Source of the DNA: Veillonella parvula
Lineage (GTDB): Bacteria; Bacillota; Negativicutes; Veillonellales; Veillonellaceae
Direction: 5' to 3'
DNA length: 64,000 nucleotides
Assembly: GCF_032472435.1 (NCBI RefSeq)
Contig: NZ_JAWEGM010000001.1
Location: forward strand, 124,928-188,927
The position numbers and the translations under genes are program-made. The notes under the pieces are model-generated. The model had not been told where the DNA came from, ran no database searches, and was given only the letters and a program-made list of their open reading frames with translations. Shown piece by piece: positions 24,951-48,181 of this stretch (within the stretch, counting starts at the first letter, position 1; the number at the start of each line of letters is the position of its first letter).

Positions 24951-25526
24951 ATGACCTTAGATGAACGATTAGATATAGTTGAAGAAATGATAAAAAGGCC
25001 ATCTTTTAGAGAAAATAAAGGCCTTGGAAATGAAGTAGGCTATTATATATTTGATTATCCAGCTGAAAAGGAACTTATTGTAAGGGAAAGAATTAACTAT
25101 ATCAGAAAAAAGAATGAGAGCTCAATTGAGAAATATAAGGTAGTAGTATTTGATCTTTATGATATTACAATCAGTATTTTGAAAGAAAAAGGGTATTTAG
25201 AAAAGTGTTATGATTTTGAGCGTAAATATGGATTCGAAAGAATAGTTAAATCAGTTGGTAATATGTTAAGAATCACATCATCAAATAGCTTGATTATACA
25301 GCACATTAAAGGGAATACTCCTGAGAATGCAATTATATTTATCACTGGGATTGGAAAGTGTTATCCGATACTTCGGTCTCATACATTATTGAATAATTTA
25401 CATCAGGTTATAGATGATGTACCGGTGGTTATGTTTTATCCTGGTAATTATGATGGACAAGAATTAGTTCTGTTTGGGGAAGTTAAAGACGATAATTATT
25501 ATAGAGCATTTAAGTTAGTTGATTAG
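24951..25526 (+). CDS. brxB: BREX type 1 protein BrxB (DUF1788)
   Basis: About 190 aa. Its start abuts the brxA stop. Second position in the operon. Contains the NEVGYYIFDYPAEKEL block. Confidence 0.8.
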   Translation: MTLDERLDIVEEMIKRPSFRENKGLGNEVGYYIFDYPAEKELIVRERINYIRKKNESSIEKYKVVVFDLYDITISILKEKGYLEKCYDFERKYGFERIVKSVGNMLRITSSNSLIIQHIKGNTPENAIIFITGIGKCYPILRSHTLLNNLHQVIDDVPVVMFYPGNYDGQELVLFGEVKDDNYYRAFKLVD

Positions 25527-25538
25527 TTGGAGAAAAAA

Positions 25539-29150: not shown

Positions 29151-29164
29151 TAGAGGGGCAAATT

Positions 29165-32100
29165 GTGAATAAAATAGAAATTAGAAAATTCGCCGAATGG
29201 GCTAGAGAAAAACTCATATCAGATATTATTTATAAGGCCGGAATGTTAGGCATCAATGAAAAAAGAATTATTGATAAGCTACCACAATCAACAGAAGATT
29301 TACATTTTTTTGATATTGGAACTAAAGAGTATGTACAAATTTCTGGAGAAGAATTAAAGCAAAGAGCTGCTCTTGTACAAACCATTAGAGATAGAGAAAA
29401 GAACTATAAATCTTATAAAGAGGCATTTGATACTATTGTAGAAGAGATTGCATATACTTGGTTTAACAGATTAATTGCTATTCGTTTTATGGAAGTAAAT
29501 GATTATTTGCCTTCAGGTATTCGAGTACTTTCATCTGAAAATGTGGTAAAGAAAGAACCCGATTTAGTAACAGATCCATTTAATGCAGATTTAGATTTGA
29601 CTGATATTGAACAGAATAGAGTAATTGAGTTAAAAAATCAAAATAAATTTGATGAGTTATTTCGAATGCTTTTTATTAAGCAGTGTAATAAACTTCATGA
29701 AATACTACCAGAATTGTTTGAGAGAACAAGTGATTACACTGAATTATTGCTAACAATTTCTTATACCGATCTGGATGGAATTGTCTATAAATTAGTTCAT
29801 GATATTAAAGAAGCTGATTTCAATATTACAAGTGAAGGTGGACAAGTTGAGATTATTGGTTGGTTATATCAGTATTATATTTCAAAAAAACATGATGAAA
29901 TTATAAATATATATAAAGGAACTATAAAGAAGGCAGATATTCCAGCAGCTACTCAGTTATTTACAACGGATTGGGTAGTTCGATATATGGTAGATAACTC
30001 GTTAGGACGATATTGGATAGAACGGAATCCCAATAGTAAATTAATAGAGAAACTTGATTTTTTAGTTGTTCCTAAAGATGGTCAAATTAATTATGTGGAT
30101 GAAAAAATTGATCCTAAAGATTTAACTTTTTTTGATCCATGTATGGGAAGTGGTCATATTCTTGTTTATGCTTTTGATGTACTTATAGAGATTTATCGTG
30201 AATGTGGTTATTTGGATCGAGATGCTGCATTAAATATTATTCAACATAACCTATTTGGTATGGACATTGATAAACGTGCTTATCAATTGGCTTATTTTGC
30301 AATAATGATGAAAGCAAGAAGCTATAATCGTCGTGCTTTAACTCAAACTATATCTAATAATCTTTCTGTTATAGAAGAAAGTAATTCTATTGAACGTTTT
30401 ACTTTTGATGGCATTACAAATGATAAAGAACAAAATAAAATTGGGGAATATCTTGTAAATGCTTATAAAGATGCAAAAGAAATAGGTACCCTTCAAACAA
30501 TTGAAGAGTATGATTATAACTCTTTTAAAAAGTATCTTTTAAGTTTAGAAAAGAATGTATCACGATATGATATTTTTTCTTCCGCTTGGTTGATGTCAGT
30601 AGTACCATTTATGCTTCAATTGACAAAACAAGCTATAATTATGAGCAAGAAATATGCTGTTGTTTGTACAAATCCTCCATATATGAATAAGTTAGAGGGA
30701 CCTTTAAAAAAGTTTGTAGTAGATCATTATAAACCATATTCAAGCGATTTATTTAGTGTATTCATGTATAGAAATTTTGATTTCTGTAAGAAAAATGGAT
30801 ACTCTGCCTTTATGACCCCTAATGTATGGATGTTTATTAAGTCATATGAAAAATTAAGAGAGTATATTATCAACTCAAAGTCTATAGATTCGTTGGTTCA
30901 AATGGCAAAAGGAGCATTTTATAAGGAGGCTACAGTAGATATATGTGCATTTGTTTTGAGAAATGACTCTTTATGTAAATATGGAACTTATATAAGGTTG
31001 GATAAATTTAAAGGAGATATGGAAGTCCAAAGAATGGCTTTTCTAAAAGAGTTAGAATTATCATCTAATAATATTTTTATAAAAAGAATAGATGAGTTCA
31101 AAGATATTGAGGGATTTCCTATTGCTTATTGGATAAGTGAAACTACTAAATCCGTATTTAAGTCTCCAATCAATATTGGTAAAATTTCACCGCCAAAACA
31201 GGGACTAGCTACTGCAAATAATGATAGATTTTTAAGATTATGGTATGAGGTTGATATTAGTAAAATTGGGTTTGGAATTGGTTCTGTAGAAGAAGCTGCT
31301 ATATCAGAAAAAAAATGGTTCCCATACAATAAAGGTGGAGCTTATAGAAGATGGTATGGAAACAGGGAGTATATTGTTAATTGGGAAAATGATGGCTTTG
31401 AAATTAAAAACTTTAAAGATGAAAATGGTAAAGTGCGTTCTAGGCCCCAAAATATTCAATTTTACTTTAAACCGGCTATTACTTGGTCAGATACAACTAG
31501 TGCCAATTTTTCAGGACGTTATGCAGATAAAGGCTTCATTTTTGATGTTAAAGGTTCTAGTGGATTCCCAAGTAAACATGATTTAATGTATATTCTGGGT
31601 TTATTAAACTCCAATGTATCACAAGAGTTCATTAGAATTTTAAATCCTACTATTACAACCCAGGTTGGTGATATGGCAAGGATTCCAGTAATTCTTAACT
31701 CTCCATATAGAGATGAAGTTGAACTTATGGTAAAAGAAAATGTTGCCTTATCGAGACAAGACTGGGATGCATTTGAAGTCTCATGGGATTTTGAGAGACA
31801 TCCTTTAGTATGTATCGCACAAAGTTTTAGAGAACTAGTTGTTAATAAAAAAAATATTACAGATAGTTGGAATGAAAATAATAATTCGAATTTTTCTTTA
31901 GAAAGCTGTTATATGCTATGGCAAGAAAAGTGTATTAAGAGATTTAACAAAGTTAAGACGAATGAAGAGAGAATAAATGAAATATTTATTAATATATATG
32001 GGTTAGAAATAGAATTATCTCCGTTAGTAAGTGACAAAGAAGTGACTATACGTAAAGAAAATCTACAGCGAGAAATTAAATCTCTTATTTCTTATGCCGT

Positions 32101-32800
32101 TGGTTGTATGTTTGGTAGATACTCACTTGATGTTGATGGACTGGCATATGCTGGCGGTGAATGGGATAACAAAAAATATATCACTTATATTCCTGATAAG
32201 GATAACTGCATACCAATTACTGACGAAGAATATTTTGAGGATGATATAGTTGGTAGATTCTGTAAATTTATCGAAATTGTATTTGGCAAAGATTCACTTG
32301 AGGATAATCTTAAATATATTGCAAATGCACTTGGAAATAGAGGTAATACAAGTAGAGATGTTATCCGTAACTATTTCTTAAATGACTTTATAAAGGATCA
32401 TATTAAAATATATCAGAAACGTCCTATTTACTGGTTGTTTGATAGTGGTAAACAAAATGGATTTAAGGCTTTATGTTATATGCATCGTTGGAACGCTGAT
32501 ACTATAGGAAATATGCGTGTTGAATATTTACATCGAATGCAGAAGGTGTATGATAAAGAGATTGAACGTATGCAAGAGATAATTGATAATAGCCATGATA
32601 ATAAGGCCATTAATAAGGCAATAAAACGCAAAGAAAAACTTCAAAAGCAGTTAAAGGAAACTAAGCACTACGATGCTTTAGTTGCTCACTTAGCACATTC
32701 TCGTATTAATATTGATCTAGATGATGGGGTGAAAATTAACTACGAAAAAGTGCAGACTACGATTGATGGAGAGAAACTACAGATATTAGTTAAGATTTAG
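29165..32800 (+). CDS. pglX: BREX type 1 N6-adenine DNA methyltransferase PglX
   Basis: 1211 aa. SAM motif FFDPCMGSGHIL and catalytic NPPY (VCTNPPYMNK). GTG start. Confidence 0.92.
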   Translation: MNKIEIRKFAEWAREKLISDIIYKAGMLGINEKRIIDKLPQSTEDLHFFDIGTKEYVQISGEELKQRAALVQTIRDREKNYKSYKEAFDTIVEEIAYTWFNRLIAIRFMEVNDYLPSGIRVLSSENVVKKEPDLVTDPFNADLDLTDIEQNRVIELKNQNKFDELFRMLFIKQCNKLHEILPELFERTSDYTELLLTISYTDLDGIVYKLVHDIKEADFNITSEGGQVEIIGWLYQYYISKKHDEIINIYKGTIKKADIPAATQLFTTDWVVRYMVDNSLGRYWIERNPNSKLIEKLDFLVVPKDGQINYVDEKIDPKDLTFFDPCMGSGHILVYAFDVLIEIYRECGYLDRDAALNIIQHNLFGMDIDKRAYQLAYFAIMMKARSYNRRALTQTISNNLSVIEESNSIERFTFDGITNDKEQNKIGEYLVNAYKDAKEIGTLQTIEEYDYNSFKKYLLSLEKNVSRYDIFSSAWLMSVVPFMLQLTKQAIIMSKKYAVVCTNPPYMNKLEGPLKKFVVDHYKPYSSDLFSVFMYRNFDFCKKNGYSAFMTPNVWMFIKSYEKLREYIINSKSIDSLVQMAKGAFYKEATVDICAFVLRNDSLCKYGTYIRLDKFKGDMEVQRMAFLKELELSSNNIFIKRIDEFKDIEGFPIAYWISETTKSVFKSPINIGKISPPKQGLATANNDRFLRLWYEVDISKIGFGIGSVEEAAISEKKWFPYNKGGAYRRWYGNREYIVNWENDGFEIKNFKDENGKVRSRPQNIQFYFKPAITWSDTTSANFSGRYADKGFIFDVKGSSGFPSKHDLMYILGLLNSNVSQEFIRILNPTITTQVGDMARIPVILNSPYRDEVELMVKENVALSRQDWDAFEVSWDFERHPLVCIAQSFRELVVNKKNITDSWNENNNSNFSLESCYMLWQEKCIKRFNKVKTNEERINEIFINIYGLEIELSPLVSDKEVTIRKENLQREIKSLISYAVGCMFGRYSLDVDGLAYAGGEWDNKKYITYIPDKDNCIPITDEEYFEDDIVGRFCKFIEIVFGKDSLEDNLKYIANALGNRGNTSRDVIRNYFLNDFIKDHIKIYQKRPIYWLFDSGKQNGFKALCYMHRWNADTIGNMRVEYLHRMQKVYDKEIERMQEIIDNSHDNKAINKAIKRKEKLQKQLKETKHYDALVAHLAHSRINIDLDDGVKINYEKVQTTIDGEKLQILVKI

Positions 32801-32856
32801 TAATACTTATTGTTAGTTATAAAATAACTGCTTTCTTTTTAGAATGGTAAGAATAT

Positions 32857-35376
32857 ATGTCAGAAATGAATTTAAATCAAATAGTAGATAAGTTAAATAG
32901 TGAGTTTATAGGGGATGGTCGTAAACTTATATTTTGGTATGACTTCAATGCTGAATTTAGTGATGATATAGATTCACTTAATCTAGATAACGCAAAAGTA
33001 TTGTATCTAAAAACTGATAACCAATTTTATATAAAATATTTTTTAGAATGTGAAGATACGACAACTAACTATTTAATATACGCACCTTTTGCTAAGCCAA
33101 GTATTAGAGATAATCATTTGGAAGACATAATTCGCTACTCCAAGACGTTCTTTGCAGATAGAGCATCTCTACTTACTCTTGATTTGGGCATTGATGAGCG
33201 ATATAAACCTGTTATTCAAAGATATATTAAGTTCTTTGCTAATAAGGAAAGAACACAAAAGTTCTATGATTTGGAAATTGAAGGATATAATAAAAACACA
33301 ATCGAAGTGGCTTTGATGAGTGTATTATGTAAAAGTAAGACCGCCTCATTTGAAGAAGTTCTTCGTTGTATTTTAACTGATGATGGACTTGAAGCCAATA
33401 AATATATTGCAGAATTTGAAAAATATGATTTGGTTGAAGCCTTTTGGCGACACGTAGATAGTGCTTTTGGATATAGTGAATCTGAACCTTCTCTAAAAAA
33501 ATTAATTATATCTATGTTTATAACATATGCCTCTAAAACAATTTATGCAGAACTACCATCTTCTTGGAAAGTACTTATCTTAAGTAAATTCAGTAATATT
33601 ATTGTTTTTCTTGATAATCTTATGAATAGTTTTTTGTATGCAGAACGTTTTGATGAGATTTCTAAAGAAATCTGGTACACATTAGATGGGAAATCGGTTC
33701 TAAGTAAAATAGACCCTGAGGCAATGATTGAGTGTAATATTTTTGCAGGAGTTGATGAAATCCTTATTGATTGGATGATAGATCGTCTTGAAAATGAGGA
33801 TATAAATGCTAAACTTTCAAGAAAAACTATACCAGAAGTTTGTTTAGCGAGAAGAAAAAAACATTTTGGTAAAGTCTATAGAACTAATTATTTTATTATC
33901 GAAAATGCGTATTATATTATTTCTGCTGGTAAGTATGAATTTATTACTGGTATTCAGAATCTAGTAAAAGAATATCTAACAAATACATATAAAATAGATC
34001 GTAGATATAGATATTTCTATTTTTACTTTGATAGATTAGAAGATATTAGTCGTTTTGAAAAACTTCGTGAATTAGTAGAGAATATTTATACAAATGATTA
34101 TTTAAATCAAATTACTGTTAATTGGAATACAGAATTCTCAGTGGCTAATGGAGAAACTGGACTTAATTTACAAAGGAATTTTTACTCTCAAAATATCCAA
34201 TTCTTAAAAGAACGAACCGTAGTAATAATATCAGATGCATTTAGATATGAGGTTGCACAGACTTTACATGAAAGGTTAGAAACTGATGAAAAATGTAAAG
34301 CTACAATTTCGGCAATTCAAGGTGTAATACCATCATATACGCCTCTCGGTATGGCCTCTTTATTGCCGTATGAATCTATCGGATATGATGATAAATTTGA
34401 TGTTCTTATTGATGGTCGAGTTTGTGCTTCTACTCAGCAAAGGGAAGATCAATTACAGAAGTATAAATCTAACAGTAAATGTATTCAGTTTGATTTAATA
34501 AAAAATATGAAACAGAAAGAGCTGCGTGAAATATTCACGGGGCAAGATGTAGTTTATGTGTATCATAATCAGATCGATGCTAGAGGTGATGCGGCTAAAA
34601 CTGAGAATGAAGTATTTATTGCTTGTGAAGAAGCAATTAAAGAAATTTATGATTTAATACGTAGGATTTCGTCACTTGCAAACACACATCACTTTTATGT
34701 TACTGCAGATCATGGGTTTATTTATAAGAGAGATAAATTAGAGGCTTATGATAAGATTAGTAGAGTATTTAAATCTGATAAGTTAGGACAAAGATATGCT
34801 TTCTCTGACCAGGAATGGAAAGCAGAAGGTGTATGCTCTACTCAAATTGGACGCGTTCTTGGAAATACGGATGATAGATATATTGAATATCCCCTTGGTT
34901 CAGATATATTTAAAGTTGCCGGTGCAGGACAGAACTTTGTACATGGAGGTTGCTCACCTCAAGAGATGATAGTCCCTTTATTGGAAGTTAAAGTAGAGCG
35001 AGGTAAGAAAGAAACAACCATAGCAGAGTTGGCCTTAGTGAGTCTCACAAATAAAATTACTAATCTTATTACTACACTTGATTTTGTTCAGAAAGAACCA
35101 ATTAGTGATTTAGTAAAAGAAGCTAAATATAGAGTCTATTTTATTTCAGAGGATAATGAACAGATTTCTAATGAGAATATAATTATCGCTGACAAAAAAG
35201 ATAAGGATACTGCCAAACGAATATTTAGACTTCGTTTTAGTTTTAAGAATAAGCGATATAATAGGTCTAAAAAATATTACTTAGTTGCGTATGACGATAA
35301 AAATAATCTTGAGGTTTTACGGCATGAGATTATTATGGATATAGCCTTTTCTGATGATTTCGGTTTCTTTGAATAA
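32857..35376 (+). CDS. pglZ: BREX alkaline-phosphatase-superfamily protein PglZ
   Basis: 839 aa. PglZ-domain motifs VIISDAFRYEVAQTL and FYVTADHGFIY. Confidence 0.9.
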   Translation: MSEMNLNQIVDKLNSEFIGDGRKLIFWYDFNAEFSDDIDSLNLDNAKVLYLKTDNQFYIKYFLECEDTTTNYLIYAPFAKPSIRDNHLEDIIRYSKTFFADRASLLTLDLGIDERYKPVIQRYIKFFANKERTQKFYDLEIEGYNKNTIEVALMSVLCKSKTASFEEVLRCILTDDGLEANKYIAEFEKYDLVEAFWRHVDSAFGYSESEPSLKKLIISMFITYASKTIYAELPSSWKVLILSKFSNIIVFLDNLMNSFLYAERFDEISKEIWYTLDGKSVLSKIDPEAMIECNIFAGVDEILIDWMIDRLENEDINAKLSRKTIPEVCLARRKKHFGKVYRTNYFIIENAYYIISAGKYEFITGIQNLVKEYLTNTYKIDRRYRYFYFYFDRLEDISRFEKLRELVENIYTNDYLNQITVNWNTEFSVANGETGLNLQRNFYSQNIQFLKERTVVIISDAFRYEVAQTLHERLETDEKCKATISAIQGVIPSYTPLGMASLLPYESIGYDDKFDVLIDGRVCASTQQREDQLQKYKSNSKCIQFDLIKNMKQKELREIFTGQDVVYVYHNQIDARGDAAKTENEVFIACEEAIKEIYDLIRRISSLANTHHFYVTADHGFIYKRDKLEAYDKISRVFKSDKLGQRYAFSDQEWKAEGVCSTQIGRVLGNTDDRYIEYPLGSDIFKVAGAGQNFVHGGCSPQEMIVPLLEVKVERGKKETTIAELALVSLTNKITNLITTLDFVQKEPISDLVKEAKYRVYFISEDNEQISNENIIIADKKDKDTAKRIFRLRFSFKNKRYNRSKKYYLVAYDDKNNLEVLRHEIIMDIAFSDDFGFFE

Positions 35377-35390
35377 TTGGGAGGTAACTA

Positions 35391-37451
35391 GTGGATGATT
35401 GTAAAGTGATAACAAGTAACAATGATGAAATTAATCGTAAACTACGAGTTAACTTCGATGGAAAAATAGTTCGTAAAGATTTAACTAAATCGATAAAAGA
35501 AGGCGCCAATGTACCAGTATATGTGCTTGAGTTTTTATTAGGACAATATTGTAGCTCAGAAGATGAATCTATTATTGAAGAAGGGGTCAATAATGTTAAA
35601 CGAATACTGGCTGATAACTATGTACGCCCTGATGAGGCTGAGAAAATAAAATCATTGCTTCGCCAAAGAGGTTCTTATACTGTAATTGATAGAATAACAG
35701 TGCACCTTAATATTAAAAAAGATACATACGAAGCTGAATTCTCAAATCTTGGAATTAAAGATGTTCCTATTTCAGAAATCTATCCTAGCAAGTTTGATAG
35801 ACTCCTTTGTGGGGGGATTTGGTGTATTGTACAGCTTGAGTACATGTATAACGAAGAAGAAAAAAATATGTCTCCTATTTTCATTAGAAAGCTTACACCG
35901 ATTCAGATGCCACATATTGATATTGGGGAGTTGAAAGAAGGCAGAAAAGAATTTACAAAAGAGGAATGGATGAAGATATTACTTCGATCTATTGGTATGG
36001 AAGCAGATGAATTAAATGAGCGAGAAAAATGGTTACTTATTGCGCGTATGCTACCACTTGTTGAAAATAATTTTAATCTTTGTGAGCTTGGCCCAAGAAG
36101 TACAGGTAAATCTCACTTATACAAAGAAATCTCTCCAAATAGTATTCTTGTATCAGGGGGGCAAACTACAGTAGCTAATCTTTTTTATAACATGAGTAGA
36201 AAAACCGTAGGTCTTGTGGGACTATGGGATTGTGTTGCTTTTGATGAAGTAGCAGGAATTAACTTTAAAGATAAAGATGGAATCCAAATTATGAAGGACT
36301 ATATGGCTTCAGGATCGTTTGCTCGTGGGAAAGAGGAAAAAGCTGCATCGGCCTCTATGGTATTTGTTGGTAATATTAATCAAAGTGTAGACGTATTATT
36401 AAAGACATCAAGTCTATTTGACCCATTTCCTAACGAAATGGGGACTGATACTGCTTTTTTAGATCGCATGCACTGCTATATACCGGGCTGGGAAATACCC
36501 AAATTTAGGCCACATCATTTTACAAATAGTTATGGATTCATTACGGATTATCTCGCAGAATTTATTAGAGAGCTTCGAAAGGAGCAATACGGTGATGCCC
36601 TTGATAAATACTTCCGACTAGGAAAAAACTTGAATCAGAGAGATACTATTGCTGTTAGAAAAATGGTTGGTGGATTTCTAAAACTTTTGTATCCTAATGG
36701 AGAATTTACTAAAGAACAATTAGAAGAAGTATTGAAAATATCACTTGAAATGCGCCGACGTGTAAAAGAACAACTAAAGAAACTAGGCGGTATGGAATTT
36801 TATGATGTTAATTTTTCTTATATAGACAACGAAACTTTTGAAGAGAAATATGTATCTGTGCCAGAACAAGGTGGTAGTAAGCTCATTCCAGAAGGAATTT
36901 GTAATCCTGGTCAAGTCTATGCAATCGCACAAGGAAAGTCTGGAATGATTGGTGCATTTCGGCTTGAATCGCAAATGTTACCGGGGAATGGTAGGTTTGA
37001 GCGGACAGGATTAGGGAATGAGTCTAAATGTAAAGAAGCTACAAATACAGCTTTTAATTATTTAAAAGCTAATAGTATGCGTATTAGTGGTGCTATTAGT
37101 ACTACACTTAAAAACTATATTGTAAACTATCAAGATCTACAAGGTATTGGAATGACTGAAAAACTCGCATTGCCAACTCTTGTTGCATTATGTTCTATTG
37201 CATTAGGCAAGCCCACTATAAGTAGCCTTGCTATACTTGGTGAAATAAGTATTGGGGGAACAATGATAAAAGTAGATGAGTTAGCAAACTCATTACAAGT
37301 ATGTCTAGATAGTGGAGCAAAGAAAGTTTTACTACCAATGACTTCTGCACCAGACCTAGCAGCAGTTCCATCAGATTTAATTGGAAGTTTTAATATCATT
37401 TTCTATAGTAGTGCTGAAGATGCCGTATTTAAGGCATTAGGCGTAGACTAA
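35391..37451 (+). CDS. brxL: BREX Lon-like protease BrxL
   Basis: 686 aa. N-terminal FDGKIVRKDLTK...VPVYVLEFLLGQYC, Walker A GPRSTGKSHLY and a C-terminal Lon protease-like domain. GTG start after GGGAGG. Confidence 0.9.
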   Translation: MDDCKVITSNNDEINRKLRVNFDGKIVRKDLTKSIKEGANVPVYVLEFLLGQYCSSEDESIIEEGVNNVKRILADNYVRPDEAEKIKSLLRQRGSYTVIDRITVHLNIKKDTYEAEFSNLGIKDVPISEIYPSKFDRLLCGGIWCIVQLEYMYNEEEKNMSPIFIRKLTPIQMPHIDIGELKEGRKEFTKEEWMKILLRSIGMEADELNEREKWLLIARMLPLVENNFNLCELGPRSTGKSHLYKEISPNSILVSGGQTTVANLFYNMSRKTVGLVGLWDCVAFDEVAGINFKDKDGIQIMKDYMASGSFARGKEEKAASASMVFVGNINQSVDVLLKTSSLFDPFPNEMGTDTAFLDRMHCYIPGWEIPKFRPHHFTNSYGFITDYLAEFIRELRKEQYGDALDKYFRLGKNLNQRDTIAVRKMVGGFLKLLYPNGEFTKEQLEEVLKISLEMRRRVKEQLKKLGGMEFYDVNFSYIDNETFEEKYVSVPEQGGSKLIPEGICNPGQVYAIAQGKSGMIGAFRLESQMLPGNGRFERTGLGNESKCKEATNTAFNYLKANSMRISGAISTTLKNYIVNYQDLQGIGMTEKLALPTLVALCSIALGKPTISSLAILGEISIGGTMIKVDELANSLQVCLDSGAKKVLLPMTSAPDLAAVPSDLIGSFNIIFYSSAEDAVFKALGVD

Positions 37452-37580
37452 GCATGTACGAAAAGTGATTAAACTCAAGAGTATTAAAATATGGGATTTA
37501 TTTATTCCATAAATAGATAGTATATGATGATTGATTGTATCAGAATAGCTTATTGAAGTCCTATTAAATAGTCAATAATA

Positions 37581-37626
37581 AATAGAGATGATTACAGATG
37601 GATTAACCATAGTAATTATCTCTATT
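37581..37626 (+). terminator. Hairpin plus T-rich tract after brxL (probable BREX operon terminator, or an operator)
   Basis: AATAGAGATGATTAC ... GTAATTATCTCTATT: 15-bp arms with 1 mismatch and a 16-nt loop, followed by TTATTTTAT. Confidence 0.5.
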
Positions 37627-37642
37627 TTATTTTATATAAATT

Positions 37643-37670
37643 TTGACTTCATTTTATTTTCATTTATTAT
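37643..37670 (+). promoter_or_regulatory. Promoter-like pair upstream of the STAND NTPase gene
   Basis: TTGACT (37643-48), 16 nt spacer, TATTAT (37665-70). A second TATAAT lies at 37681-86. The AT-rich context makes chance matches likely. Confidence 0.35.
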
Positions 37671-37728
37671 AGTAAAGACGTATAATATAAATATCATTAT
37701 ATATAGTTTTCCTGAAAGGGGATTTATT

Positions 37729-40700
37729 ATGAGTGTTAGTTATGTAGGGGAATTATTTGGTAGAGAGAGTATATTAGATTCTTTATCAAACCGTCTTGAG
37801 ATTGCCTTAAAAGGAAAAGGTTGTATTGATTTATTACATGGTGATGCTGGAATTGGTAAAAGTGCAATAATAAATAAGTTTGCTACCCTACATCCAGAAG
37901 TACAAACCTTGTATGTACAATGTTCTGCTTTGACTGATGCAGATGATTTGTATAAGCCTTGTTCGGATCTTTTGAATAGTATAGAGTCGATTAAATGGCA
38001 AGAACAATCTAAAGTGAAAAAGTTCTTTGGCTCTTTTAATATGGAAAAAGTTTTTGATGTAGGTGGTAAGATTCTGGGATTTATTCCTGGATTGGAATTA
38101 CCGAGTGCAATTATTGACCTAGCTATCTCTGCCTATGCAGGGGATACAAATCCGGAGGTGTTAGCCGAGACCTATAAAAATGATAAAGTTAAGCTCTATT
38201 CAGATATTATATTGGGCCTTAGTATGGAGAAACCGTTAGTTGTAGTTTTTGATGATCTTCATTGGGCAGATCGAGGGACTATCAATGTGTTTAAACATAT
38301 ATTTCAAATTATGTTGGAGGCTCGACAAGGATTAAATAATAAAAAATTTAATTTGTTATTAATTGGTTCATTACGAGGTTCAGAAGCTAAGGCTGATTCA
38401 CTTCATAATGGTATTAATGAAATGTTTAGCTTTATGGATCGTTACAATTTTGGCCGAACTCAAAAATTGATGATTCAACATGAGGTCCAAGAACTAGATG
38501 CTGCATCAGTTCAAGCTCTTATTACCTATAATTTTGATAATGATGAAAAACTTTCTGACGGATTGAAACGTTGGTTATGTGAGTCTAGTAATGGTAATCC
38601 GTTGTTATTGTCCAATCTTATAGATGTATTACGCGAAAATGGTGCAGTTGAAAGTACGTCCACTGGATGGATCGATTTTAATGAAGTTAGTTATGTATCT
38701 GATGGTCCTGTATTAAAAGGTAGACTGTTACGTCTTGAAAAGCAAGGAGCCTTTAGAAGTAAGTCTGTAGTCGCTCTTGAGGCATTGCGCAACTTAACAG
38801 ATACAGAATTGAAGATTCTATATGTAGCCTCTATTTTTAAGGAATATTTTACTATTGAAAGCTTAGCTCATGTTTGTAAGATTATTGAATCAGATTTATA
38901 CTGGCCAATTAATAGATTAATTAAAATGGGCTTTATTGTTGAACAAGGTGAAGTAGATAATGGATTAGAAGTCCAAAATCGCTACCAAATTAAATCTAAA
39001 GCCTTAATTGAAGCACTTCGAAATGATATGTCTGTTCATCAAATTACTTATTATGAGGATTCTTTAGGTGAGTATTATTCTTCTAAAATAAAAGATATTG
39101 ACTATATGGAAGAGACTGTTGATAGCTTAGACTTATCTGATATAGTTGCTAAACCAGTTATCTCTGATAAGTATAGTAAGATTAATAAAGTTAGAGATTT
39201 CTATCATAAAATGGCTTCTTATCATTATATGAAAGGTAAAAACTCACTAAAGGCGATAGAACATGGTTTATTTGGTATTGAACGACTCGTAGAGCGATAT
39301 AAAGAAACTAAAGAACAAACACCGTCACCTTTAGAGTTGGATGGGTTATATAAGACGATTGAGTCCCAGATTTCTTTATATGATACTCTTTTTGATAAGG
39401 TCATTGATGAATTAATTTTAGTTAAACATAACGATAATGAATTAATTCAACATCTCAAAATACGCGCATTAAAAATTTATGCTCAATTTTATGGCTGTTT
39501 TGGTCAATATTCTAAGGCTAGTCAATATTTAAATACGGCTCTTATGTTGACTACTTTTACTGAATCAGAGATAGATGATGCAGAGTTAATGTTAGCAGTT
39601 GCAGAGATTAATATTGATAGTGGGAATTTTACTAAAGCAGGACAGATAATAGGAAAGCTTTTAGACTATTTAGCGGAGTATGGAAATTCTTGGGAGCCAT
39701 CACAATATGACGATATAATTGAAAATCTATTATTACTAATAAGTATTGATTCATCCTTACAGGCTAAATATATTTCTAAAGTGACTTCAGTTGCTATTGG
39801 ACTGAAGTCTGAATGTATTATTGATGCACAGTTTGCAGAGCTTGAATTTTATTTGCGTCATAATGATCTTGAGAGAGCCAAAGAATTACTAATACAAATA
39901 GAAAGAACAAATTCAGATATAAACTGGGCTCATTATTTAGGCACTCAAATATGTACATTATATTTATATAATATTCCAAAAGATGTTGATGAACAGCTAG
40001 AGCTTTTAGCTGATGATTGGAATGCTCAATATAATTATAAAGTAAAAAAAGATTATCAATGGGGCTTAAATGTATGCAACTTATTTTTACCAATCTTGTT
40101 AAAGGAAATTAAAGCGTTGGATGAAGAATCGTTGTCTTCAACTATAGAGGCGACGTTGGCACTTTTATCTTGGCTTTACAGTTTATTAAGATTAAACCCA
40201 GATATTGCAATTAAAAAATATACGGATGATGAACATATTCAATCGGTTTATAAAGATCGCGTTCTAGAGTTACAATCACAAGCAATTAATATTCTAGACC
40301 TTAATAAGCATAATATTGATTTGCAGGCAATTTATAACTGGTTTTATAATCATATTAAAAGTGGACTATATATTGAAGAAAGAGACTCAATATTGCGATA
40401 CTTTTTAACTAGCTGGCCTGAGTACATTGAGAGTAAACATATTGAATATTTATTTATAGAGTCTATGAATTCAACTGAAATAGTATCTAATATAAGTCGG
40501 TATGAAAATAATATAGCTGCGTGGCGTGACTATTATGAACTAAAACCAAGTGGTAGTTTAGCAGAGTTAGTTGTTAATTCATTAGAAGAAACAATTAAAG
40601 ACTTAGGAAATAATCCGTTTGTAGTAAAATTGGTTGATGGAATATTATTAGAAATTAATGATTTTAAGCAACGTATAGATTGTAATAAATATATTAAATT

Positions 40701-41616
40701 AGCAGTAGCTATTTGTTTGGAATATAGTGAGTATCATGAGGCTAGAAATCTCTCAAAATATGCATCTAAATCATTATCTGATGAACTAACTCTCAAGATA
40801 GATGAATTAGAAAATAAAGAATCTGAAAAATGGCTAGATAAAAGTAAGATTGAATTATTTTCTTATGATGGAGAGGATCAATTTTCAAGATTTATTAATG
40901 CTGAAAAAATAATTAACCAAGCAGAGACACTTTTATCAGATTATGAATCTGATGAGGAAATAGAAGATTCTGACATTATCGAAGGATTAAAGTTATATGC
41001 ATCTGCTTATAATTTAATGAAAAACAATGAATATGCAGAAACCAAAATAGATGATATATGTGAGTGTATTGCCAATTATATTGATAGACTTGAAGATGTT
41101 GACTTATCAGAACTCGTAGATATATTTGGGGAAGAATCTATTTATGAGATTCCAGAATTAAGTCAACTTGTATTGCAACTTAAATTCCAGTATGAAGCAT
41201 TAAAAATTAATCAGACTCTAGGAGATACAAATAGGGTTGTTGAATGTCTAGTAAATATGATATCAACTATAGAGGAGGCCATTAATCCGGGTGAATCTGA
41301 CGATGATGAGGATGATATTGTAAATGAAATGGAAGAGGGGCTTTCCTATAATGAAGTAGACAATGCACTAAAAGCATTAGACCTTTCAATTGAAGCTGTT
41401 TTATCTTTACATCAACAATTATTAGTTGAAAATACTATGTTAGATATTGCATTAGAGCAATATTTTGAATTCGATGCATTGAGTGGGTTTGATTTTGCTG
41501 ATGAATATATCATTCCTAGTGTTAAATCGTCTGTAGAGCAAATTGTACAAAATGTTAATAATCCTATCTTGACTAATTATGTTAATAGTTTGTTAGCTGT
41601 TAAAAATCCATTTTAG
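37729..41616 (+). CDS. Large STAND-type P-loop NTPase (AAA_16-like) with about 900 aa of C-terminal TPR-like helical repeats and no recognisable effector domain
   Basis: Walker A GDAGIGKSA, Walker B LVVVFDDLHWAD, then LLLIGSLRGSE. TPR-like helices (e.g. YGCFGQYSKASQYLNTALML, HNDLERAKELLIQIE). Acidic C-terminal tracts. The ATG at 37729 follows GAAAGGGGA. I reject the upstream 47 codons in the ORF track. Confidence 0.75.
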   Translation: MSVSYVGELFGRESILDSLSNRLEIALKGKGCIDLLHGDAGIGKSAIINKFATLHPEVQTLYVQCSALTDADDLYKPCSDLLNSIESIKWQEQSKVKKFFGSFNMEKVFDVGGKILGFIPGLELPSAIIDLAISAYAGDTNPEVLAETYKNDKVKLYSDIILGLSMEKPLVVVFDDLHWADRGTINVFKHIFQIMLEARQGLNNKKFNLLLIGSLRGSEAKADSLHNGINEMFSFMDRYNFGRTQKLMIQHEVQELDAASVQALITYNFDNDEKLSDGLKRWLCESSNGNPLLLSNLIDVLRENGAVESTSTGWIDFNEVSYVSDGPVLKGRLLRLEKQGAFRSKSVVALEALRNLTDTELKILYVASIFKEYFTIESLAHVCKIIESDLYWPINRLIKMGFIVEQGEVDNGLEVQNRYQIKSKALIEALRNDMSVHQITYYEDSLGEYYSSKIKDIDYMEETVDSLDLSDIVAKPVISDKYSKINKVRDFYHKMASYHYMKGKNSLKAIEHGLFGIERLVERYKETKEQTPSPLELDGLYKTIESQISLYDTLFDKVIDELILVKHNDNELIQHLKIRALKIYAQFYGCFGQYSKASQYLNTALMLTTFTESEIDDAELMLAVAEINIDSGNFTKAGQIIGKLLDYLAEYGNSWEPSQYDDIIENLLLLISIDSSLQAKYISKVTSVAIGLKSECIIDAQFAELEFYLRHNDLERAKELLIQIERTNSDINWAHYLGTQICTLYLYNIPKDVDEQLELLADDWNAQYNYKVKKDYQWGLNVCNLFLPILLKEIKALDEESLSSTIEATLALLSWLYSLLRLNPDIAIKKYTDDEHIQSVYKDRVLELQSQAINILDLNKHNIDLQAIYNWFYNHIKSGLYIEERDSILRYFLTSWPEYIESKHIEYLFIESMNSTEIVSNISRYENNIAAWRDYYELKPSGSLAELVVNSLEETIKDLGNNPFVVKLVDGILLEINDFKQRIDCNKYIKLAVAICLEYSEYHEARNLSKYASKSLSDELTLKIDELENKESEKWLDKSKIELFSYDGEDQFSRFINAEKIINQAETLLSDYESDEEIEDSDIIEGLKLYASAYNLMKNNEYAETKIDDICECIANYIDRLEDVDLSELVDIFGEESIYEIPELSQLVLQLKFQYEALKINQTLGDTNRVVECLVNMISTIEEAINPGESDDDEDDIVNEMEEGLSYNEVDNALKALDLSIEAVLSLHQQLLVENTMLDIALEQYFEFDALSGFDFADEYIIPSVKSSVEQIVQNVNNPILTNYVNSLLAVKNPF

Positions 41617-41682
41617 TTATTTTAGTAACATTTATAGCCAAGGATATTAAACGATCTTTAGCTATTCATGGTAGAGGTTATA

Positions 41683-42942
41683 ATGAATAATATATTTTCT
41701 TTTGCTACAGGCGAGTTATCTCAAGATGCTTTTATTTGTTGGTGTCTAAATTGGATTAATGAGCCAGATATTGTAGCTACACATAGATATCGTCAACTTG
41801 GTTTAGATTTACTAGCTAAGTTAATAGATAAGCCATCAAATTGTGATGTTGTGCTATCAAAGGTAGACATCAAATCAATAGATAAAGTAATCTTGGTGCA
41901 GCAGGTTTTAAATATTGATGTGTTAGCTATAATTCCTCAATACAAGTTAGCCATTATCATTGAAGACAAAACAAGCACTAGTGAACATGGTAATCAAATT
42001 AGCTTTTATAAAGATTCTTTAGAAGTTGTGTTTAAATGCCATAAACCTTGGAATGCCTATACTAAATTGGAAAAAGCTTTTAAGTTAGTAGATCTTAATA
42101 TAGAGAATGCCGATTTAGCTAATTATCATATCCATACCGTATACTTCAAGACGGGTTATTACTTTGATTATGATTGGCAAGTAGCTCATAGTGAATCAGT
42201 ATATAATTATCTAACTGGACCTATGTTTTGGGATATTCTAAAAAATTATGATGACTGTGAAAGTGATATTTTAAGAAGTTATTGTGAGCATTTAAAAAAG
42301 CAACTAGATTGGTATCAAATTGTATCTACAATAAATGGACAATATGATGATGGATGTCACTATATAAAATGGGAACGTGTCACACAGCATGGCTTATTAC
42401 AGATTATATTTGATAATGAAAATATAGATGGTTCCTGGTTATGGAAGGATATGAGTATCTATCCGAATCCATATAGTACTGGTACAAATCAGGGCGGTAG
42501 TCCATGGACTAATCGCCGTTTTTGGACTCGAACAGAGTCAGATGCTATTTGGTCTGAGCCACCTAGAAGCTTTAATCCCAGGATATTTTGGCGGATAGAT
42601 CATGATTCAAAAGGAGCGTATTTATCTTTACGATATTATAATAATGATTCTACTAATCAGGGAAAGATAATACGCAAAAGAATATATAGTCAACTTAATA
42701 CTTTGATTAATGATACTGTCACTGATGAGTTAGATCGATTAAATATTACTTATGAAAACTGTGTCGCTCGTCCTCGGCATGGAAATTATTATGAAAACAC
42801 GTTGATTCATATTGGCATTGATAGAGTATTAGATTCTTGGGATGATAATAATGGAGAACCTTTTATAGGTTTAGTTAGAGCTATTGATAATAAGCTTAAA
42901 GAGGTAGTTATATCTTTTGATTGGAAAACCTTTAGGTTATAA
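41683..42942 (+). CDS. PD-(D/E)XK nuclease-family protein (PDDEXK_4-like) with an uncharacterised Trp-rich C-terminal domain
   Basis: N-terminal GELSQDAFICWCLNW. Core NIDVLAI ... LAIIIEDKTSTSEHGNQISFY (D...ExK plus the Q...Y helix). It starts 66 nt after the NTPase gene. GAGG RBS before the ATG at 41683. Confidence 0.65.
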   Translation: MNNIFSFATGELSQDAFICWCLNWINEPDIVATHRYRQLGLDLLAKLIDKPSNCDVVLSKVDIKSIDKVILVQQVLNIDVLAIIPQYKLAIIIEDKTSTSEHGNQISFYKDSLEVVFKCHKPWNAYTKLEKAFKLVDLNIENADLANYHIHTVYFKTGYYFDYDWQVAHSESVYNYLTGPMFWDILKNYDDCESDILRSYCEHLKKQLDWYQIVSTINGQYDDGCHYIKWERVTQHGLLQIIFDNENIDGSWLWKDMSIYPNPYSTGTNQGGSPWTNRRFWTRTESDAIWSEPPRSFNPRIFWRIDHDSKGAYLSLRYYNNDSTNQGKIIRKRIYSQLNTLINDTVTDELDRLNITYENCVARPRHGNYYENTLIHIGIDRVLDSWDDNNGEPFIGLVRAIDNKLKEVVISFDWKTFRL

Positions 42943-42945
42943 AGC

Positions 42946-43096
42946 AAAATAGGGAAAGAAATCCTTAGATTTCTTTCCCTGTTTAGATATGATATAATTT
43001 ATACCCAAGTGAGGCATAAATGGTTTGGTCGCCAGACTTCGCTTCTAGAATTTAATGTTGAAGAAACGGTCTGACATCATGTCAGGCCGTTTCTTC
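42946..43096 (+). repeat. ~150-bp direct repeat, copy A (contains the terminator hairpin 42951-42985, the extended -10 TGaTATAAT at 42990-98 and a long hairpin at 43059-43096)
   Basis: By eye about 80-90 percent identical to 44582-44732. Confidence 0.85.
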
Positions 43097-43113: not shown

Positions 43114-44325
43114 TTAGTTGTGTAACTCTCGTTTTCCGTATAATTTCAGGACTATAGCAATAATTGTATTTAACACAAATAGAGCGGCAAAACATTCTAA
43201 AGCAGTAGTATAGCCATATCCTGCTTCGTGAAAGTATGATACGAGCATAGGACCAACGATGCCCGCTAATCCCCAAGCAGTTAGAATACGGCCATGAATA
43301 GTAGAAAGTTGACGTATACCGTAGAGATCCGCAAGATATGCTGGCATACAGGCGAATCCGCCGCCATAGCAGGTGATAATGAGAAGGATTAAAATTTGGA
43401 ATGTTAGCGCGCTATTGGTTTGGGCGAGTAGATAGAATGCGACGATTTCTATAATAAAGAATAGTATGTAAGTTTGTGCTCGTCCAAGGTAATCGGAAAT
43501 AGTAGACCATGCAATACGCCCCCCGCCATTGAAGATACCGATGATACCAACTAGCGATGCAGCTGCTGCAGGTGTCATACCAATGGCTTCCTGCGCCATA
43601 GGGGACGCTAAGGATAGAAGACCTATACCACAGGTAATATTAATAAAGAAAGTCCACCAAAGGGCCCTGAATTGCCAAGTTTTCATAGCATCATTAGCTA
43701 GCATGCCATGGTTATGAACGTACATAGTGGATTTATCTTTCGTAGTTCGCGGTGGTTGTTTCGGTTGAGGTGCTTTCAAATAGAGCGAAGAGGCGCCCAT
43801 AATTACGAGATAGATTACACCGAGGATAATGAAAGTATCCACCAATCCAACCTGAGCTACAAGGTATTGCATAAGAGGCCCTGCAATGAGAGAAGCAAAG
43901 CCAAAACCCATAATAGCTAAACCAGTAGCAAATCCTGGGCGATTTGGAAAGTATTTCACGAGTGTAGAAACTGGTGTTATATAACCAATGCCTAGTCCAA
44001 TGCCACCGATGATGCCGTAGAAGAGATAGAGTAAGGTAAGCTTGTGTATGCTAAGTGCGTAGGCCGTACCCAATAATCCGGTTACCCAGAATAACATAGC
44101 GAGAAGTCCACTTTTCTTAGGACCAATTTTTTCTGCAAAGGATCCAAGAAAGCCCGCAGATAGTCCGAGCATTAAAATGGCTAATGAGAATGTCCATGTT
44201 GTTTGCGATAAAGTAAAACCCATATCTGCCATAATAGGACGTGTGAGTACACTCCATGCATATACGCTACCAATGGATATGTGCAAACCAATGGCTGCTA
44301 ATGCAATAAACCAACGATTTCTCAT
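43114..44325 (-). CDS. MFS transporter, oxalate/formate antiporter (OFA) family
   Basis: N-terminus RWFIALAAIGLHISIGSVYAWSV, typical of OFA-family MFS proteins. 12 predicted TM helices. Confidence 0.85.
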   Translation of the reverse strand: MRNRWFIALAAIGLHISIGSVYAWSVLTRPIMADMGFTLSQTTWTFSLAILMLGLSAGFLGSFAEKIGPKKSGLLAMLFWVTGLLGTAYALSIHKLTLLYLFYGIIGGIGLGIGYITPVSTLVKYFPNRPGFATGLAIMGFGFASLIAGPLMQYLVAQVGLVDTFIILGVIYLVIMGASSLYLKAPQPKQPPRTTKDKSTMYVHNHGMLANDAMKTWQFRALWWTFFINITCGIGLLSLASPMAQEAIGMTPAAAASLVGIIGIFNGGGRIAWSTISDYLGRAQTYILFFIIEIVAFYLLAQTNSALTFQILILLIITCYGGGFACMPAYLADLYGIRQLSTIHGRILTAWGLAGIVGPMLVSYFHEAGYGYTTALECFAALFVLNTIIAIVLKLYGKRELHN

Positions 44326-46837: not shown

Positions 46838-48181
46838 ATGATTCGTAAAACAATAGTATTTTCAGTATATATCAGCTTAATTACTGGTTTAGTAGGGGCT
46901 GTTGATGTTAATATTCCCGGTGCGGATAATAGAATTTCTGCAAATGCTTATGAAAGTTATATACATCATGATTCCTTAATTAGAAATATACAAGAGGAAG
47001 CCTTGAGAGACTTTCAAAAGAGTAAACAGTATGATAAAACTAAGCAGCTATATAGAGATAATGGCCTATCTGAAAAAGAGGCTGAAACAGTCATTCGAGA
47101 AAGCTATGTAGGTCCCCTTAATCTGTATGAGGGGCAAACAGAGGTTATTGATCATAGTGGAAAAGGGATTCGTTTCCTTGTACCTTATATGAGTTATTAT
47201 AAAGTGCAGAAACATAATATAACTGATAAATATATAGGGTATGAACTTTTCTCTCATAATATGACAACAGGCTTAATAGTTGAAAATAAGCAGAATTGGC
47301 AAAGTTCTGATTATATGGGAAAGCCATTTAATTCGATCACGGAAGAGGATTTACGTAAAGATTATAAACGACCTACAAACATAAAAGAGTTTGAATCGAT
47401 TTCTTATAAACCAGAAGATATTCACGGAGCGAGTTTTTCTTATGCTGGTTTAATGGATAGCTATTGGGATTCTTTGTATGCCGAAATTAAGAAAAATAAT
47501 AAAGCTCAATTTTACTCTAATTTAAACTTTGCTTTTGATAATGATTCGACTATTCGATATCATGTAGGTATAACTGAAGCTAAGCGGGATATGGGGCAGG
47601 TAATTAGTCCCATACTGGTTAATTATGTGTTACCATCTATTAAACCTTTAACAGATAGCAATGTATATTCTCATACAACAAAAATAGACGGTGAAAATTT
47701 TATTTATCGTATTCTTAATGATGCAAAAGTTAGTGCTACTTTAGCAGATTTTAAAAGTGGTTTATTTTATAAAAGTCCTTCTGGTATAACACAAACTATC
47801 TTTATAGATTCCATAGCTAAGGAGCGTGGAACTGATTCTATTGCGCTAGCTAGCTTTATGGATGAGGTGATTATGAATGCAGTCCAATCGCCTGAAGACT
47901 TTGTCCATTTCTCTAAACGCATTGTATGGAATGATGGTGTACCAGGTATTTTAGTGGAACAAGAGAAAGCTAATAAAGAGGGTATAATGGTATTTTATAT
48001 TCAGGACGGAACGACAGCTTTAACTAGTATATTGAGTTATAATAGAAATATGTCTTATACTAAAGAACAACTTCGTAATATGATAACTGATGTTAAGTTA
48101 GTTACTATTCCTGAGAAATTCAAGGGCAATGTTGATCTTGCTAATATTGAAGATATAGTTAAAAAACATTTGGAGAAGTAG
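46838..48181 (+). CDS. Secreted hypothetical protein, paralogue of 22719-23927
   Basis: Shares sequence blocks with 22719-23927 (see that feature). Signal peptide. Confidence 0.65.
   Translation: MIRKTIVFSVYISLITGLVGAVDVNIPGADNRISANAYESYIHHDSLIRNIQEEALRDFQKSKQYDKTKQLYRDNGLSEKEAETVIRESYVGPLNLYEGQTEVIDHSGKGIRFLVPYMSYYKVQKHNITDKYIGYELFSHNMTTGLIVENKQNWQSSDYMGKPFNSITEEDLRKDYKRPTNIKEFESISYKPEDIHGASFSYAGLMDSYWDSLYAEIKKNNKAQFYSNLNFAFDNDSTIRYHVGITEAKRDMGQVISPILVNYVLPSIKPLTDSNVYSHTTKIDGENFIYRILNDAKVSATLADFKSGLFYKSPSGITQTIFIDSIAKERGTDSIALASFMDEVIMNAVQSPEDFVHFSKRIVWNDGVPGILVEQEKANKEGIMVFYIQDGTTALTSILSYNRNMSYTKEQLRNMITDVKLVTIPEKFKGNVDLANIEDIVKKHLEK

Follow-up and report, generated by a model that had tools for sequence, protein, structure and literature searches.

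Analysis of a 64,000-nucleotide stretch of the Veillonella parvula genome (assembly GCF_032472435.1, contig NZ_JAWEGM010000001.1, positions 124,928 to 188,927 of the forward strand; hereafter the window, numbered from its first letter) revealed a small operon for defence that occupies the fixed right-hand border of a hot spot of defence genes in Veillonella and lies outside the bacteriophage exclusion (BREX) system that it adjoins in this strain. The first gene of the operon (gene 1) encodes an NTPase of the STAND type (signal transduction ATPases with numerous domains) and the second (gene 2) a protein with a likely PD-(D/E)XK-type nuclease domain. Comparison of related loci found that gene 2 has long resided at this place in the chromosome and is kept there whether or not gene 1 is present. 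We propose, with a probability of about 0.4 by our own estimate, that, on sensing a phage protein, gene 1 forms oligomers and switches on the gene-2 nuclease in trans, and that gene 2 also acts alone.

The features of the unit are as follows (aa, amino acids; TPR, tetratricopeptide repeat).

37497-37573, plus strand: degenerate, out-of-frame remnant of the 3′ end (last ~80 nt) of an upstream gene, C0, found by local alignment of the window spacer to C0 plus spacer of locus L007
37581-37626, plus strand: AT-rich hairpin with T-tract, likely terminator of the upstream unit and left border of the gene-1 unit
37657-37686, plus strand: likely promoter (TTTTCA, 18 nt, TATAAT), from conservation across loci and a consensus scan
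37714-37722, plus strand: ribosome-binding site of gene 1, GAAAGGGGA, read from the sequence and conserved in all aligned loci
37729-41616, plus strand: gene 1, STAND NTPase without fused effector, 1295 aa (AAA_16 at aa 8-193, probable winged helix at ~348-434, TPR-like alpha-solenoid at ~441-1295)
39529-41616, plus strand: hypervariable sensor half of gene 1 (aa ~601-1295), from identity between clades A and B
41634-41665, plus strand: stem-loop or inverted repeat, ATAGCCAAGGAT, 8 nt, ATCTTTAGCTAT, with one C-A mismatch in the window
41683-42942, plus strand: gene 2, 419 aa (N-terminal ~210 aa PD-(D/E)XK-type nuclease-like; Trp-rich middle and C-terminal domain matching no family)
42951-42980, no strand assigned: G+C-containing hairpin of 13-17 bp that closes the unit

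An open reading frame (ORF) check confirmed both genes; they are separated by 66 nt, and 277 nt lie between the end of brxL (37451) and gene 1. An earlier annotation of this DNA made from the sequence alone (the first-pass annotation) had placed both genes, both spacers and both hairpins at coordinates that were all reproduced, and every motif that it quoted from the two proteins was found in the sequence.

Gene 1 encodes a STAND NTPase with a TPR-like solenoid

Pfam AAA_16 was found at aa 8-193 of gene 1 (E = 1.1e-15; 59 bits versus a cut-off of 32.6) with both Walker motifs (A and B) intact, in agreement with the STAND-type NTPase read by the first-pass annotation; the nSTAND6 profile remained below threshold. 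Residues G38-K44 (Walker A), D175/D176 (Walker B) and R216 were invariant among gene-1 relatives (n = 12). Helix-turn-helix (HTH) family matches at aa 348-434 were weak (E = 0.003-0.01), and this region coincides with the expected position of the STAND winged-helix subdomain, which is its probable identity. The AlphaFold2 (AF2) model of aa 441-1295 (855 aa) contained helices only, with a predicted local distance difference test (pLDDT) score of 84 and a predicted template modelling (pTM) score of 0.79. Searching this model against the PDB with Foldseek gave 22 matches at E ≤ 1e-3, and those listed were helical-repeat, TPR-like proteins: Ski3, IFT-A subunits, Ctr9 and Naa15. The TPR-like array suggested earlier is thus borne out by both the all-helical model and the TPR-solenoid matches.

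The earlier reading of a protein without an effector also stands: the NTPase starts from residue 8 and is followed by the solenoid, with no effector match in Pfam, NCBIfam or PADLOC. A LuxR, SARP or other DNA-binding output domain, which had been named as the finding that would speak against a defence sensor, was found neither by Pfam and NCBIfam nor in the AF2 model, whose C-terminal part is a solenoid. No PADLOC v2 model matched gene 1 or any of 11 relatives at E ≤ 0.01; sequence searches of PDB chains with gene 1 and its family profile gave nothing usable, and a search of PHROGs was uninformative for both genes. An exhaustive HMMER search of 1.84 billion representative proteins with the C-terminal 855 aa gave 11 matches, five of which were long proteins (about 1280-1300 aa), and a word-based search gave ~32 clusters, beyond which only generic AAA_16 matches (cyclase, kinase and TPR STANDs) were obtained. 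As judged by these searches, the gene-1 family is tiny and almost confined to Veillonella.

When clade A and clade B gene 1 were compared per 100 aa, identity was 90-100% over aa 1-600 and 31-54% beyond. Gene 1 (37729-41616 in the window, set against P0023-P0025) is thus a sharp mosaic with a switch near aa 600. This sharp switch in identity suggests that the sensor half may be exchanged as a cassette. The combination of a constant module for oligomerisation with a sensor that changes fast or has been swapped is what one expects of an immune receptor.

Gene 2 encodes a probable PD-(D/E)XK-type protein

The Pfam PDDEXK_4 family (PF14281) scored 18.2 bits on the window gene 2 against a cut-off of 22.3 (E = 0.0025), and it matched 18 of the 25 aligned gene-2 relatives at E ≤ 0.01, the best at 5.1e-6. 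Residues D79, E94, K96, Q105 and Y109 were invariant in Veillonella and Fusobacterium clades at ~30% identity. PADLOC PDC-S26 matched gene 2 at 1.9e-9, over aa 43-121 only, which correspond to positions 70-148 of the 397 in the profile. The AF2 model had a pLDDT of 69.8 overall and ~65-93 per 10-residue block in the N-terminal domain; it was reasonable for the N-terminal domain and the last 120 aa, and the Trp-rich segment 214-293 lies outside the modelled part. The best match of the model in BFVD, a collection of viral predicted structures, was a PD-(D/E)XK protein (E = 1.7e-3, probability 1.0, template modelling score 0.54). Foldseek found no PDB match at E ≤ 1e-3, and gave low-probability YbjN/PUR-like matches to the C-terminal part only; PDB chains searched by sequence with gene 2 and its family profile gave nothing usable. 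The PD-(D/E)XK signature that the first-pass annotation had recognised was retained as an invariant D79/E94-x-K96 plus Q105xxxY109 core together with the BFVD match, and a PD-(D/E)XK-type nuclease domain in gene 2 is therefore likely from sequence and model.

Paralogues of gene 2 with ~30% identity (about 478 aa) were found in V. atypica, V. tobetsuensis and others (L015-L025), and relatives of 350 aa in Fusobacterium. All of them retain the N-terminal FSFATxELSQDAFICWCLNWIN and IIEDK. No STAND gene was found next to these ~30%-identity paralogues from other Veillonella species and Fusobacterium in L015-L025.

Both genes lie in one predicted transcription unit

The hairpin at the left border of the unit (37581-37626) folds at -22.1 kcal/mol (z = -5.9; 0 of 200 shuffled sequences folded as well) and was kept in all upstream contexts compared. 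Downstream of it, TTTTCA at 37657-37662 and TATAAT at 37681-37686 were invariant in 12 diverse loci with five different upstream contexts, as were the bases flanking this -10 box. A TTGACT/16 nt/TATTAT pair at 37643-37670 had been proposed as the promoter; the pair is present, but its hexamers vary among related loci, and it was dropped in favour of the invariant TATAAT. Promoter-like matches in this AT-rich stretch occur at chance level (34 observed, 35.7 expected), and the TTTTCA/TATAAT pair is, from its conservation, the more credible promoter. About 150 nt 5′ of gene 1, including the hairpin, the promoter and the ribosome-binding site, were conserved regardless of the genes further upstream. 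Many database entries begin gene 1 at 37588 (1342 aa); because of the conserved ribosome-binding site and the onset of homology, the favoured start is 37729.

At the right border, the hairpin at 42951-42980 folds at -22.8 kcal/mol (z = -6.6), and no shuffled sequence folded as well. The first-pass annotation took it to close the pair; the hairpin is real, but the better T-tract is on the minus strand, which is the strand called by the terminator scan. It is therefore probably a bidirectional terminator, common to the unit and a convergent major facilitator superfamily (MFS) transporter gene. No significant structure or terminator was found in the 66-nt spacer between the two genes of the window (z = -1.2). 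With real hairpins at both ends and nothing significant between them, the genes form a transcription unit of their own, as had been supposed, and a single conserved promoter, followed first by gene 1 and then by gene 2, is predicted to serve both.

RNAalifold analysis of 14 distinct gene1-gene2 spacers gave 15 pairs, two with compensatory changes. In most loci the repeat in the spacer has arms of 11-12 bp (ATAGCCAAGGAT, 8 nt, ATCTTTGGCTAT), and compensatory changes were seen in L124. This stem-loop (41634-41665 in the window) could act as a weak attenuator, an RNA-stability element or an operator.

Linkage of the two genes across related loci

About 120 related loci were collected from genome and metagenome collections and compared by tblastn. 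The closest genome loci were those of V. parvula, with 98% identity for gene 2 and 94% for gene 1. Gene 1 was followed by gene 2 in 44 loci, in three gene-1 clades that are 90-99%, about 66% and about 61% identical to the window, and the ~66-nt spacer between them was itself conserved. Recurrence of the pair elsewhere, which had been put forward as a check, was thus found in many genomes without BREX. Gene 2 did not follow gene 1 in four loci, all of the P0029 clade (L005 and L006, and probably also L063 and L068).

The tail of gene 1 (41560-41616) reads ...LL(A/T)(V/I)K(N/D)(P/S)(F/Y/H) in the clades with gene 2 and ...LLAVKNPF in the window. The tail of the P0029 clade, in which a helicase gene follows, differs and ends three residues earlier. 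This segment may be a docking tail or merely a recombination breakpoint, and co-variation of the tail with gene 2 was set aside as evidence.

Among the 42 gene-1 loci with enough upstream DNA, brxL lay directly upstream in five (the window and four metagenome loci). The other upstream neighbours were C0 in 20, a DUF2971/PDC-S31 gene beside a type I restriction-modification (R-M) system in nine and another small protein in four; the remainder had a radical-SAM gene or an SLFN-type helicase. The position at the 3′ end of BREX noted in the first-pass annotation is therefore true of the window, but it is not a feature of the pair in general.

The gene C0 encodes a 188-aa protein with four predicted transmembrane helices that matched the PADLOC CBASS 'Effector 4TM' model (5.3e-6), and in the 20 loci (for example L007:5323-5889) it is intact just upstream of gene 1. 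C0 or its 3′ end was present in every clade A and clade B gene-1 locus and in no locus without gene 1. In the window, the BREX cassette appears from the alignment to have replaced most of C0. The BREX junction cuts through the C0 remnant, and the juxtaposition of BREX and gene 1 is therefore secondary. The two-gene picture of the first-pass annotation thus lacked a third linked gene, which was missed because only its 3′ remnant is kept in the window.

Two arrangements were compared. The order in L124 (5349-9373) is SLFN helicase (minus strand), promoter region, gene 1 and gene 2; in L008 and L009 (L009:9867-10001), gene 2 comes straight after this promoter region, itself preceded by the same SLFN-type helicase. 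On this alignment gene 1 is a clean insertion/deletion polymorphism between promoter and gene 2. Therefore the two genes would have a common promoter where both are present, and gene 2 is also kept, and predicted to be expressed, on its own. Between gene-1-positive and most gene-1-negative loci the homology begins at the gene-2 ATG, so the 5′ end of gene 2 is a plausible recombination anchor. In loci without gene 1, the genes upstream of gene 2 vary widely: a DUF4268/PDC-S11 gene; an SLFN-type helicase in opposite orientation; a type IIG-like enzyme together with PDC-S34; an NsnA/GmrSD-like gene and a HEPN gene beside a type I R-M system; and a kinase.

The linkage is one-sided, strong when seen from gene 1 and weak when seen from gene 2. 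In an obligate pair each gene would be found essentially only with the other, and this was not the case. The module of two genes proposed by the first-pass annotation cannot be upheld in that form: gene 2 is common without gene 1 (19 loci), a helicase takes the place of gene 2 in the P0029 clade, and C0 is linked as well. Viral contigs and plasmids were also scanned, and no relatives were found there beyond generic AAA_16 or nuclease-core matches; there is thus no sign of the pair being phage- or plasmid-borne.

Integrity and decay of the two genes

Both genes were intact in 30 gene-1-positive loci. Gene 1 was interrupted with gene 2 intact in two loci (L043 and L060), and one lineage (L002-L004) carried nonsense codons in both genes, at codon 219 of gene 1 and codon 72 of gene 2. 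The DNA of L053 is ~100% identical to that of L002, and in both gene 2 is cut short at codon 72; L002 alone has in addition the stop at codon 219 of gene 1, from which it follows that gene 2 was lost first. This single case is in keeping with gene 1 having decayed once gene 2 was lost, as far as can be read from the sequences. A test for correlated pseudogenisation of the two genes gave a weak result.

Proposed mechanism and alternative explanations

In the mechanism that we propose, the TPR solenoid of gene 1 would bind a phage protein, and ATP-dependent oligomerisation of the NTPase half would cause the gene-2 nuclease to be recruited or activated in trans; the outcome would be degradation of DNA and abortive infection. 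Gene 2 alone would retain an independent activity, lower or triggered differently. If gene 2 is active by itself, the two would not form an obligate pair, and gene 1 would be a sensor added on as an option. The architecture and mosaic conservation of gene 1, the defence context, the adjacency in 44 loci and the single transcription unit point in this direction, as do the invariant catalytic residues of gene 2, its PD-(D/E)XK fold match and the sequential decay in L053 and L002. What the data show are the domain architectures, the borders of the transcription unit, the conserved adjacency, the lack of dependence on BREX and the autonomy of gene 2; phage-protein sensing, nuclease activity and any coupling between the two proteins, whether physical or functional, we infer.

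A considerable body of observations weighs against this mechanism. Gene 2 was found at the same site beside the MFS gene without gene 1 in 19 loci (69-87% identity), with at least six different upstream architectures, and this set includes the commonest gene-2 alleles, P0064 (100 blocks) and P0173 (277 blocks of the collection). Gene 2 of L055, where gene 1 is present and BREX lies upstream, is 99.5% identical to gene 2 of L009, where gene 1 is absent; gene 2 therefore needs no adaptation to gene 1. Across loci, the two genes vary in identity without regard to each other (99/80, 94/98, 66/87 and 94/71). From the side of gene 1, the P0029 clade has a 1126-aa MkoC-like helicase in place of gene 2, no nuclease gene adjoins the distant relatives P0300 (on a conjugative-element-like contig) and P0307, and gene 1 is intact with gene 2 disrupted in four loci (L027, L030, L052 and L053). 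Finally, the nuclease fold of gene 2 has no match in the PDB, and the window protein lies under the Pfam threshold.

Many of these observations would be accounted for if the two were independent defence genes in one operon, which we regard as nearly as likely as activation in trans. Gene 2 would then be a self-contained PDC-S26-like nuclease, with a regulatory or sensor domain of its own in the C-terminal part, and gene 1 a stand-alone STAND whose cassette always recombines beside the conserved 5′ end of gene 2; gene 1 might act through a host factor, or by trapping a phage protein in oligomers driven by ATP. The wide occurrence of gene 2 behind the same promoter region without gene 1, the near-identical gene-2 allele with and without it, the lack of co-divergence, the gene-1 clade without gene 2, the solitary distant relatives, the intact gene 1 beside a gene-2 pseudogene and the onset of homology at the gene-2 ATG all favour independence. 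However, gene 1 has no output domain of any kind, and validated Avs families needed the fused effector for death (Lee et al. 2026, PMC13581612); the adjacency in 44 loci and the conserved spacer also extend across clades that are 61-67% identical and five upstream contexts. In a further explanation, to which we give a small probability, C0 would be the true partner of gene 1, as a membrane-disrupting 4TM effector and ancestral companion, with gene 2 a bystander and the system of the window crippled. The distribution of C0 and its remnants over clades A and B, the match to the CBASS effector model and the variation of genes upstream of C0 against the constancy of gene 1 downstream of it would suit such a partnership. 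Yet C0 is intact in only 20 of the 42 loci and gene 1 remains full-length in the BREX, DUF2971 and C11 contexts, C0 is divided from gene 1 by a strong, conserved terminator hairpin and a separate promoter, and in L124, of the P0027 clade, gene 1 is still followed by gene 2 with no detectable C0 or remnant.

Regulation offers a quite different role for gene 1, as a MalT/SARP-like regulator of gene 2 or of nearby defence genes rather than an immune sensor. Both MalT/AfsR-type regulators and cyclase/kinase STANDs, the nearest remote matches of gene 1, are built from AAA_16 plus TPR, there are weak HTH-family matches at aa 348-434, and a conserved inverted repeat precedes gene 2. Those matches, however, coincide with the expected place of the STAND winged-helix subdomain, the C-terminus consists of nothing but a helical-repeat solenoid with no LuxR, SARP or other DNA-binding output, and a hypervariable sensor half would be unusual for a housekeeping regulator. 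The idea was rejected for want of an output domain, and we consider it very improbable. Least probable of all is that the pair is a BREX accessory module which works with or regulates BREX in the manner of BrxR, BrxU or embedded PARIS. It does lie directly 3′ of brxL in the window and in four metagenome loci, but the other loci have the 4TM gene, DUF2971/PDC-S31, a small gene or the SLFN-type helicase upstream; the junction through the C0 remnant indicates a secondary juxtaposition, and a 2026 survey of BREX diversity mentions no such component (PMC12839542). It was rejected on co-occurrence, brxL being upstream in 5 of 42 loci.

Significance of an optional sensor

The most far-reaching reading is that gene 1 would be a plug-in immune receptor, effector-less and NLR-like, set in between the coding sequence of an autonomous nuclease gene that was already there and its promoter; it would widen or retune the triggers of that nuclease. 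We hold this reading to be less likely than not. If it were true, the sensor half would be exchanged between strains with the oligomerisation half and the docking surface fixed, and the locus would be a natural case of a bacterial STAND that signals to a separate, self-viable effector without a recognisable adaptor domain. If the two genes are independent, they would be just two more uncharacterised defence-island genes with a narrow taxonomic range.

Many defence-associated STAND clades have no fused effector, and this locus is a compact test case for their signalling, with only two candidates for the output of gene 1 among its neighbours, the nuclease gene and the 4TM gene. Veillonella parvula is an abundant commensal of the mouth and gut. 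A human commensal thus already offers isogenic-like states, promoter-gene1-gene2 and promoter-gene2, and the natural genotypes comprise strains that have both sensor and nuclease, strains in which only the nuclease follows that promoter region, strains whose sensor stands beside a nonsense-mutated nuclease, and strains whose sensor comes with or without the 4TM gene.

The defence hot spot and its other genes

The window contains a complete type I BREX system of six genes at 24345-37451 (brxA, brxB, brxC, pglX, pglZ and brxL; PADLOC E = 0 to 1e-72). The convergent MFS gene, of the L-lactate type, is located at 43114-44325, 3′ of gene 2. The G+C content is 29-33% over ~24-43 kb, which covers BREX and both genes, versus 37-43% in the flanks. 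In the window and its relatives, the surroundings of the unit include BREX, type I R-M, Mrr, a GajB-like gene, a retron reverse transcriptase and DUF4238, as well as an SLFN-type/Nhi-like helicase and PDC candidates. The hot spot of V. parvula is thus one in which BREX, R-M, retron, Gabija-like and other cargo are exchanged against a fixed edge gene.

The pglX gene of the window (29165-32800) was 51-74% identical to those of L065, L055 and L056, and pglZ and brxL there were 92-99% identical. This fits a swap of the BREX methyltransferase/specificity gene inside an otherwise conserved BREX cassette, as judged from the identities. Two minus-strand ORFs, at 17576-18481 (301 aa) and 18517-19071 (184 aa), match the C-terminal and N-terminal parts, respectively, of one Na+/sulfate (DASS) symporter profile, and the DASS symporter gene at 17576-19071 looks split or frameshifted. 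A family of ~400-450-aa proteins is encoded at 22719-23927 and 46838-48181, and also in L002, L009, L010 and L011, with mutual identities of 21-27%; it had no match in Pfam, NCBIfam or PADLOC. Copies are seen to either side of the defence island and, in other strains, also within it, and the family may be a marker of the hot spot.

Comparison with known systems

The Avs (antiviral STAND) proteins are bacterial NLR-like proteins (Gao et al. 2022; Lee et al. 2026, PMC13581612). Like Avs1-5 and Avs7-24, gene 1 has a STAND NTPase, a large TPR-like helical sensor that diverges much faster than the NTPase, and a location in a defence island. Unlike them, it has no fused effector at either end and matches no PADLOC model, its NTPase is of the AAA_16 (MalT/cyclase-like) type, and its family is tiny and nearly Veillonella-specific, with 11 representatives among the 1.84 billion proteins. 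In Avs, the TPR sensors bind conserved phage proteins and oligomerisation activates the fused effector; for 13 of the 13 Avs families screened for triggers, mutation or deletion of that effector abolished cell death (Lee et al. 2026, PMC13581612). Judged by its sequence, gene 1 is most like an Avs/NLR-type sensor, yet it has neither the fused effector nor the family-model match that mark a member of Avs.

MalT, AfsR (SARP) and LuxR-type STAND regulators also have an AAA_16 NTPase with TPR-like repeats; gene 1 differs in having no DNA-binding output, in its defence-island setting and in its hypervariable C-terminal half. Gene 2 resembles PDC-S26/PDDEXK_4 proteins in length (419 aa versus 397-400 aa), in its nuclease core (E = 1.9e-9) and in its defence-island location, but only 79 residues (aa 43-121) align and the C-terminal half is unrelated or too diverged. 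It is at best a distant relative, by sequence, of PDC-S26, itself a candidate single-gene phage defence family in PADLOC. BrxR, BrxU/GmrSD and PARIS are extra defence genes found in or beside BREX loci. The pair resembles them in lying at the 3′ end of a type I BREX system in the window, and differs in that this linkage holds in 5 of 42 loci and the pair belongs to the hot spot.

AVAST types I and III are multi-gene STAND systems. STAND sensors with effectors acting in trans have been described by comparative genomics (Kaur, Burroughs, Iyer and Aravind 2020/2021, PMC7159879, PMC8195603), and the unit in Veillonella has in common with such multi-gene conflict systems the concept of a sensor that draws its effector from a neighbouring gene. 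In those systems sensor and effector are joined by effector-associated (Death-like) adaptor domains or by strictly co-inherited genes, whereas here no such domain could be detected and the gene of the putative effector occurs far more often by itself. As the first-pass annotation had supposed, neither gene maps fully to a named system (PADLOC gave no match for gene 1 and the partial PDC-S26 match for gene 2), and no description of the pair was found in the open-access full-text literature on PDC-S26, PDDEXK_4, Veillonella BREX or STAND plus nuclease. We conclude that the unit is an undescribed variant of Avs-type defence, in which an optional sensor is co-transcribed with an autonomous nuclease gene.

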